Shown here one piece after another: positions 45,957 through 46,762 of a stretch of 64,000 bases of DNA. Source of the stretch: Eledone cirrhosa (lineage: Eukaryota); the NCBI GenBank assembly GCA_964016885.1, contig OZ024741.1:42408001-42472000 (forward strand), given 5' to 3'. Positions within the stretch are counted from its first letter, which is position 1; every line of letters begins with the position of its first letter. A model generated the notes under the pieces. That model saw nothing but the letters and a program-made list of their open reading frames with translations. It was not told where the DNA came from and did not search any database. Made by a program: the position numbers and the translations under genes.

Positions 45957-46762
45957 ATAAATGTAATCTGAGTTTTTCGAATATTAATAATAACATTCGA
46001 TTCGTTTGCAATTATGCAAACAAGCCTCATTTTTATTGCCATGTCAGTAGAATGAACTCTTCATTCTTGCTTTTGTGTTTGTATGTAAACAGAACTGCAG
46101 ACACTAATGTTTCTGGGTATCACCCTTCATCAGCTCACTATTCACCTGCCAAACTGTCAGAACTAGTGAAAATATATGCTATTTTCTAAAATATACAGTG
46201 ACTGATTGGCCTCATTTGCATATTAGCAAATCCACTGATCAGCCAGATTTGCATATCAGCAGAGTGGTTAGTCAGTTTCCTGTATACGAGCGATAAATGG
46301 CCAGCTTTGCCACATTCAAATAAAAAGAGAAAATTTTGCTCTACATGGCTGAGTATAATAACTGTAATCTGAGTTTTTCGAATATTAATAATAATATTCG
46401 ATTCGTTTGCAATTATGCAAACAAGCCTCATTTTTATAGCCATGTCAGTAGAATGAATTCTTCATTCTTGCTCTTGTGTTGGTATCTAAACAGAACTGCA
46501 GACACTAATGTTTCAGGTTATCTCCCTTCATCAGTACAGCTCACTGTTCACCTGCCAACTGTCAGAGCTAGTGAAAATATATGCTATTTTCTAAAATATA
46601 CAGTGACTGATTGGCTTGATTTGCATGTTCTACTGACATGGCTATAAAAATGAATTTTGTTTGCATAATTGCAAACGAATCGAATGTTATTATTAATATT
46701 CGAAAAACTCAGATTACATTTATTGCATTCAGCCATGAAGAGCGAACATTTTCTTTTTTTAT
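45957..46762 (-). mobile_element. Retrozyme-like partial dimer (401 nt period, two hammerheads) plus ~130 bp inverted arm, flanked by (TA)n
   Basis: 45962-46220 repeats at 46363-46626; 46628-46762 is the reverse complement of 46320-46452; no ORF. Confidence 0.82.
46493..46542 (-). ncRNA. Type I hammerhead ribozyme
   Basis: GAGCTGTA-CTGATGA-AGG.GAGATAA.CCT-GAAA-CAT.TA.GTG-TC-TGCAGTTC on minus strand; second copy at 46092-46136 has a 5 nt deletion in stem I. Confidence 0.87.

Follow-up and report, generated by a model that had tools for sequence, protein, structure and literature searches.

A non-coding hammerhead repeat laid out in the manner of an inserted PLE occupies positions 45957–46762 of the 64,000-nt stretch of Eledone cirrhosa DNA analysed here (the window). 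We consider it likely that this is an old insertion of a many-copy repeat, reverse-transcribed into a (TA)n microsatellite by the enzyme of an autonomous PLE. The element is itself neither an autonomous PLE nor a MITE, and by the family features examined here it belongs with the metazoan non-LTR retrozymes, with cleavage predicted. The original prediction combined retrozyme tandem structure with a PLE-style inverted end and took this as directly linking retrozyme insertion to the PLE mechanism. The combination stands, with a non-coding tandem unit, an inverted end, a 39-nt tail and a fixed outer end (site 1); 'directly linking' is too strong, since the link is read from a footprint and was already in print, PLE mobilization of retrozymes having been proposed (PMC7229834, PMC7761336) and a retrozyme–PLE link argued from sequence homology (Li et al. 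2026, 10.64898/2026.07.22.740005).

Layout and ends of the insertion

Direct reading and self-BLAST reveal two outward-pointing arms enclosed by two (TA)n tracts. The left tract (45838–45956) is the apparent insertion target, in which a target-site duplication is not readable, and the right tract spans 46763–46915. In RNA sense, arm 1 runs on the minus strand from 46629 to 45957, about 671 nt or 1.67 tandem units, and arrays of three or more units were not observed. It comprises an upstream unit (copy 1, 46358–46629) that is 5'-truncated where the inversion junction falls, an internal copy of the 39-nt tail between site 1 and site 2 (46319–46357), and a downstream partial unit (copy 2, 45957–46224), with the end of one unit joining the start of the next at 46319. 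The tandem parts, 46354–46629 and 45953–46224, are 92.4% identical over 277 columns by self-BLAST. This partial dimer carries two minus-strand hammerheads, HH1 (46493–46542) and HH2 (46092–46136), with predicted cuts after 46501 and 46100, exactly 401 nt apart; dimer, spacing and (TA)n on both sides are all as first described. Arm 2 is an inverted, 5'-truncated copy on the plus strand (46628–46723) that breaks off 48 nt before reaching the hammerhead cut site and continues, at the right end of the element only, into a 39-nt PLE-type tail (46724–46762). The inverted copy, noted earlier as 130 bp, measures 136 bp (46628–46763) and is 91.2% identical to 46319–46453. The 5' ends of the two arms meet at the inversion junction (46627–46629) over 2–3 nt of microhomology.

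The outer ends fall at two defined positions of the unit. Arm 1 ends at site 1 (45957), and arm 2 passes the equivalent position, 46723, and runs 39 nt on to site 2, the end of the tail. On the sense strand each site ends in TTATT. Both recur inside the tandem, at 46358 and 46319, and measured from the hammerhead cut they lie 143 and 182 nt downstream. The outer end at site 2 is seen at this locus only, in a stretch that was skipped as a repeat in read mapping. Neither arm ends at a hammerhead cut site, and arm 1 crosses two of them. PLEs have been described as partial tandems with an adjacent inverted 5'-truncated copy, (TA)n targets and a tail of 30–40 bp at one end (Craig et al. 2021, PMC8557442); the element has both the partial tandem and the adjacent inverted 5'-truncated copy of this footprint, and its one-sided tail lies inside that range. 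In vitro, the green-anole PLE nicks AT-rich DNA on both strands, and its reverse transcription begins at two internal positions of the RNA, the interval between which gives the tail (Frangieh et al. 2024, PMC11167929). By analogy, a GIY-YIG endonuclease would nick both strands of the AT-rich (TA)n DNA, reverse transcription would start from two fixed positions within the RNA (site 1 and site 2), and the resulting cDNAs, one of 671 nt and the other of 136 nt, would be joined over the 2–3-nt microhomology.

A different repeat family (45409–45837, with further copies at 20161–20615 and 31306–31478 by self-BLAST) ends at the element's own left (TA)n tract, so this one microsatellite received two insertions.

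A non-coding unit with predicted self-pairing

The cut-to-cut monomer (46100–46500, minus strand; 401 nt) has a GC content of 35.7%, within the retrozyme criterion of GC under 45–50%. Read as a circle, its longest ATG frame has only 85 codons, and a 107-aa stop-to-stop frame (46324–46647) has no Pfam match, which bears out the earlier claim that there is no ORF. No RT/GIY-YIG frame lies between the hammerheads, where there are only 401 nt. Predicted self-pairing of the monomer is strong (z = −3.7 linear and −3.6 circular), and none of 100 shuffles matched the stability of either form.

Upstream of the hammerhead, the unit contains two clear and one degenerate 33-bp subrepeats (46196–46294, minus strand) with octamer-like words; three of the six octamer words in the window lie in the element. 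The number of subrepeats varies in the family, the octamer of the extra family subrepeat is imperfect, and a CCAAT-like word at 46207 is not the family majority. The subrepeats are at most a candidate promoter; an snRNA-type promoter in newt satellite 2 would be a precedent, but a literature listing did not bear it out. A bacterial promoter scan of the element, an irrelevant model for this DNA, gave chance level. Two predicted hairpins (46378–46421, minus strand) just upstream of site 1 occur in all three copies and may be protein-binding or RT-start structures.

Hammerhead sequence and predicted folding

HH1 (46542–46493, minus strand) has a complete core and fits the type I descriptor, with helix I of 8 bp and helices II and III of 3 bp each. 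The strict descriptor finds one match in the element and none in 5000 dinucleotide shuffles of it; for the window it finds five, and none in 200 shuffles. Rfam returned no hammerhead at gathering score for the whole window and none among 14 weak matches for the whole element; a query of 101 bases did hit Hammerhead_HH9, but its 16.9 bits (E 0.046) fall well short of the 52-bit gathering score. The exact hammerhead pattern had 0 matches in viral contigs and 0 in metagenome contigs. HH2 has an intact core and a family-type helix II, and lacks 5 nt from the 5' strand of helix I; this loss from stem I had been noticed from the sequence and is confirmed by copy alignment. Helix II of HH2 is the family majority, helix II of HH1 has three private changes, and both hammerheads carry changes private to this copy. 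By the rule of Li et al. (2026), under which an 'active' element has two consecutive complete hammerheads, the truncated HH2 counts against an active copy, not against family membership.

Folding predictions point to a dimeric ribozyme. In the stretch 46560–46080, the core sequence CUGAUG is predicted to pair with CAUUAG of helix III at a probability of about 0.98. Relative to the predicted minimum, the energy is 7.3 kcal/mol higher for a single HH1 fold and 4.0 kcal/mol higher for a double hammerhead in which HH1 and HH2 are paired through a 10-bp helix III, in calculations that leave out magnesium and tertiary contacts. The helix III segment can pair with itself (predicted −8.8 kcal/mol). 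On these models, lone HH1 would misfold, with its core paired to its own helix III loop, and the double hammerhead would be favoured over the single one, suggesting that the ribozyme works mainly in the double form. Dimeric PLE hammerheads were reportedly the subject of Lunse et al. in 2017. The deletion in HH2 need not silence the locus fully, as the HH1 core of a double hammerhead is predicted to cut the HH2 site. Given the predicted misfolding of HH1 and its private helix II changes, a failure of HH1 to cleave would not refute the family. Similarly, tandem DNA itself yields junction reads, so unphased junction reads would not prove a circle.

A many-copy family in three organisms

Four public runs were mapped at 85% likeness: X10 and X1 (organism A), X4 (organism B) and X5 (organism C). 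A search across sequencing runs listed no RNA run containing the element. Matches on the element comprise 45,026 of 12,467,656 X10 reads and 9,554 X1, 2,488 X4 and 38 X5 contigs, mostly 90–99% like the element, and thus define a many-copy dispersed family in three organisms. Family units measure about 400–440 nt and have one type I hammerhead motif each. At least 3,677 X10 reads (the largest joint row) carry an extra 33-bp subrepeat, giving units of about 406–440 nt. Among the 24 loose ends listed of 1333, site 1 exits into (AT)n at 45957 in 30 X1 contigs, and its equivalent at 46723 does so in 28 X1 contigs and 1 X5 contig; none of the 24 points into shared coding sequence. Strand inversions at other places account for 3 of the 15 joints listed (272 in all), two of which rest on one read start. 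Closure of the unit was assessed at the end-to-start join. One X5 contig (record 20), from a different copy, covers 46217–46361 with 14 differences and bridges the join with 102 + 42 bases beside it. X1 depth dips to about 7,000–12,000 near 46313–46328, against 25,000–54,000 alongside, and remains continuous; X4 depth dips too. The evidence for closure is thus a single bridging contig plus continuous but dipping depth. Together, the fixed end in (AT)n and the bridging contig indicate that the unit is a non-coding repeat, not a private join of PLE fragments.

The 5 nt missing from HH2 are present in 6698 of 10878 X10 reads, so the deletion is private to this copy. The family-majority helix II has four base pairs above an A.A mismatch at its base, the mismatch being present in 86% of X10 reads and at 95–100% of depth in X1, X4 and X5. 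A G.U pair in helix I (46540) is A-U in 28% of X10 reads and at 95% of X4 depth, and a divergent X4 variant (38 contigs, agreement 0.74) has the same helix II with another loop. No variant row falls in the hammerhead core or helix III among the 40 listed of 137. Variants in helices I and II keep or improve pairing in other copies, suggesting selection on the fold.

X10 reads pile up with starts at 46083–46113 and 46491–46519 and ends at 46316. These were rejected as RNA ends and assigned to the restriction ends of a RAD library, on the basis of what we take to be a PstI-type site inside each hammerhead (46095 and 46496). A further 3760 X10 reads leave the element at 46432 into mixed AT-rich sequence (agreement 0.37), which may mark another end site or a subfamily, or may result from size selection disfavouring copies that have a cut site at 46411.

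Age of the copy

This is an old, decaying insertion. Aligned over 272 columns, its two units show 15 substitutions and 2 indels (a difference of 5.6%), and the 94 bases held three times differ between copies at 3, 4 and 5 places. Twenty of the 40 difference rows listed (137 in all) were taken, namely those of the duplicated part minus three X4-only rows; the 14 majority-difference rows comprise 11 private to one unit and 3 (2 sites) common to both. The pattern is consistent with one template sequence at birth followed by decay, and a uniform source array fits as well. In X1, T>C or A>G changes make up 28 of the 55 variable positions, with 4 in the reverse direction, a bias that fits ordinary AT-ward decay; ADAR-type editing is not seen in this copy.

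PLE-type insertions in the window

A coding PLE remnant at 28526–30176 has the same layout, with arms at 28580–28850 and 29904–30176, a 54-nt tail, TA at both ends, and one minimal hammerhead per arm (28785, minus; 29969, plus). Its 248-aa frame (28999–29745, minus strand) maps in a protein atlas to GIY-YIG/HTH_animal clusters with a score of 0.97, these families being found on 12–18% of cluster members. Aligned over 97% of its length, the frame shares 35% identity with a 969-aa protein in which RT motifs were recognized by eye, and it contains a C-x4-C-x-x-C linker and a CCHH pattern as described for Neptune/Nematis PLEs (PMC8557442), making a remnant of this type the likely assignment. Pfam identifies neither the 248-aa frame nor the 969-aa protein. 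The proteins P0001 and P0002 found no identity in Pfam or PDB; the best PDB match of P0001, a GIY-YIG intron endonuclease (E 0.071), is a lead only. Relatives of the remnant lie at 23030–24736 and about 44700–45230 (tblastn frame matches at 23524–24228 and 44711–44812), and a third minimal hammerhead of the coding-PLE kind is found at 45003.

Other insertions in the window have comparable ends. Among hand-picked inverted-arm pairs, a (TA)4+ run lies no more than 12 nt from an arm end in 10 of 12 (the ends of three pairs having been set by eye), against a baseline of 5.5% of positions outside runs. A second hammerhead family, with a long helix II and a palindromic TA loop in helix III, is represented by two insertions (31630–33187 and 47798–48659). 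Both inverted arms of each insertion contain a hammerhead, and one end extends 82–91 nt past the other, the side of the longer end being reversed between the two copies. The pairs near (TA)n and this staggered second family indicate that PLE-type insertion is common in the window. For an autonomous partner, the unit was compared with seven window elements, including the coding PLEs, and shared only matches of 13–22 nt with them; none had ends that match those of the unit.

Several further repeats were recorded. The region 40973–42450 includes a hammerhead at 41351 (plus strand) with a U.U at the base of helix II and a palindromic loop, between 73-bp direct repeats, and is adjoined by an inverted-arm pair (41870–41991/42277–42398) with a 50-nt tail. 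Fold-back or inverted-arm elements also occur at 6062–6476 (a 415-bp palindrome with TA at both ends), 1577–1768, 11545–13468 and 30592–35052. A reverse transcriptase frame (PF00078) lies at 62892–63824. An abundant short dispersed repeat, often in tandem, occurs at 40117–40517 and at about 20 further positions, and 9126–9183 gives a tRNA-like match at threshold; we take these to be probably tRNA-derived SINEs.

Alternative origins and the template

The strongest competing explanation is a non-autonomous PLE with a passenger hammerhead, inserted from uncut tandem transcripts with neither a cut monomer nor a circle; we give it somewhat less than an even chance. It gains weight from the green-anole PLE, whose main substrate is uncut RNA, whose hammerhead mutants insert normally and for which cleavage is unnecessary for insertion (PMC11167929), and from the Chlamys elements, which include non-autonomous head-to-tail forms and mostly lack canonical hammerheads (PMC8557442). 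At this locus, the position of both arm ends away from the cut sites and the 7.3 kcal/mol by which lone HH1 exceeds its misfold in prediction point the same way. However, the pairing-preserving variants of helices I and II speak against a mere passenger, mussel, coral and axolotl units have been shown as circular RNAs (PMC7229834), and the three copies look like one birth sequence, although a uniform source array gives that too.

This alternative touches the nature of the template in the preferred reading of a non-coding unit mobilized by a PLE enzyme. Because the long arm continues across two hammerhead cut sites, its template was not a cut linear monomer. A ligated circle has roughly an even chance of having been the template, an uncut tandem transcript is a realistic prospect, and a template jump is improbable; the circle accounts for about half of the confidence placed in the PLE-mobilized non-coding unit, and an uncut linear multimer fits the layout no less well. 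The copy is old and short, so circle and linear multimer are not separable at this locus, and young, long arrays are the better objects. A fuller version, which we regard as tentative and on balance doubtful, is that a PLE enzyme primed both break ends at two fixed positions separated by 39 nt on one hammerhead circle, rolling past the ligated cut site twice, with a core–loop switch protecting the circle. In this circle version the helix III loop would pair with the catalytic core in the monomer and be freed when two units form the double hammerhead.

It is unlikely that the element consists of three 5'-truncated pLTR 3' ends of a long coding PLE, spaced 401 nt apart by chance, with no free unit. 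The coding PLE at 28526–30176 does provide the same layout, dispersed or opposite-strand hammerheads are often truncated PLEs (PMC4209133), the array is short at 1.67 units, and both X1 and X4 lose depth at the join. Yet the end-to-start join recurs in a different copy in organism C, the listed loose ends stay clear of shared coding sequence, and 4704 X10 molecules end at 46316 with depth unbroken to the hammerhead, which excludes a frame between the two in those copies.

An origin as a MITE-like DNA transposon bounded by 94-bp terminal inverted repeats and inserted at a TA target is very improbable: inverted 94-bp copies (95.7% identity) do lie near both TA-flanked ends, and a mariner-type transposase remnant (PF01359, PF17906) is present at 42563–43700, but the right-hand repeat is not terminal, extending 39 nt more, the same sequence recurs internally in tandem, and the inversion joints of other copies lie elsewhere. 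Local duplication with fold-back, or an assembly artefact, is scarcely credible, for although none of the contigs or reads listed covers the element from end to end and long (TA)n flanks are hard to assemble, the three copies differ at 3–5 of 94 bases with private changes relative to the family, the ends match those of other copies, and a local event would yield no tail.

Relation to known retrozymes and PLEs

Metazoan non-LTR retrozymes (mussel, 350–390 bp; coral; axolotl Rtz331/Rtz353) are, like the element here, non-coding tandem units of around 400 nt, with GC under 45%, one type I hammerhead per unit and predicted self-pairing (PMC7229834). The A.A mismatch that is the family majority departs from the G10.1-C11.1 pair highly conserved in described hammerheads (PMC4209133) and has a precedent in axolotl HHR_Amex2, which has a U.U at the base of helix II and cleaves better as a dimer (PMC7229834). 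Circles were demonstrated for metazoan retrozymes in that study, whereas here a circle is a candidate template. Its main text does not contain the words 'inverted' or 'microsatellite' and gives no description of an insertion with two arms, a tail and (TA)n anchoring.

In vertebrate retrozymes, Li, Clavereau and Pollet reached the same conclusion, that PLE machinery is used (10.64898/2026.07.22.740005). Their units of 51–972 bp, in most families few in number, resemble the present one. Their evidence consists of co-occurrence in Xenopus and pLTR homology, whereas the evidence here comes from insertion ends, and the available text names no mollusc. Eight of nine Xenopus retrozyme dimers were without in vitro cleavage in the same report.

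With EN+ PLEs of the Neptune/Nematis type and the non-autonomous Chlamys element MRC1, the element shares the partial tandem, the inverted 5'-truncated copy, the tail, (TA)n, and a hammerhead with a self-complementary helix III in the repeat (PMC8557442, PMC11167929, PMC4209133). It differs from EN+ PLEs in having no RT/GIY-YIG frame, in a unit of about 400 nt rather than 3–4 kb, and in a 3-bp helix III and extended helix I in place of their minimal hammerhead.

Neither this family nor tailed two-arm retrozymes were found described in the open-access literature. Prior support for PLE-mobilized retrozymes, in the available text of the sources cited, comes from shared ribozymes, co-occurrence and pLTR homology, not from insertion ends; a non-coding hammerhead unit with a PLE tail, beside a coding PLE of like layout, adds independent footprint evidence. 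It also names two RNA start sites for an in vitro PLE assay. How circles avoid re-cutting is left open in the available text of PMC7229834, and the predicted core-to-loop pairing offers a simple explanation of how they could avoid self-cutting. If true, the circle with its switch would supply both the insertion step and an in vivo block on the re-cutting of circles.
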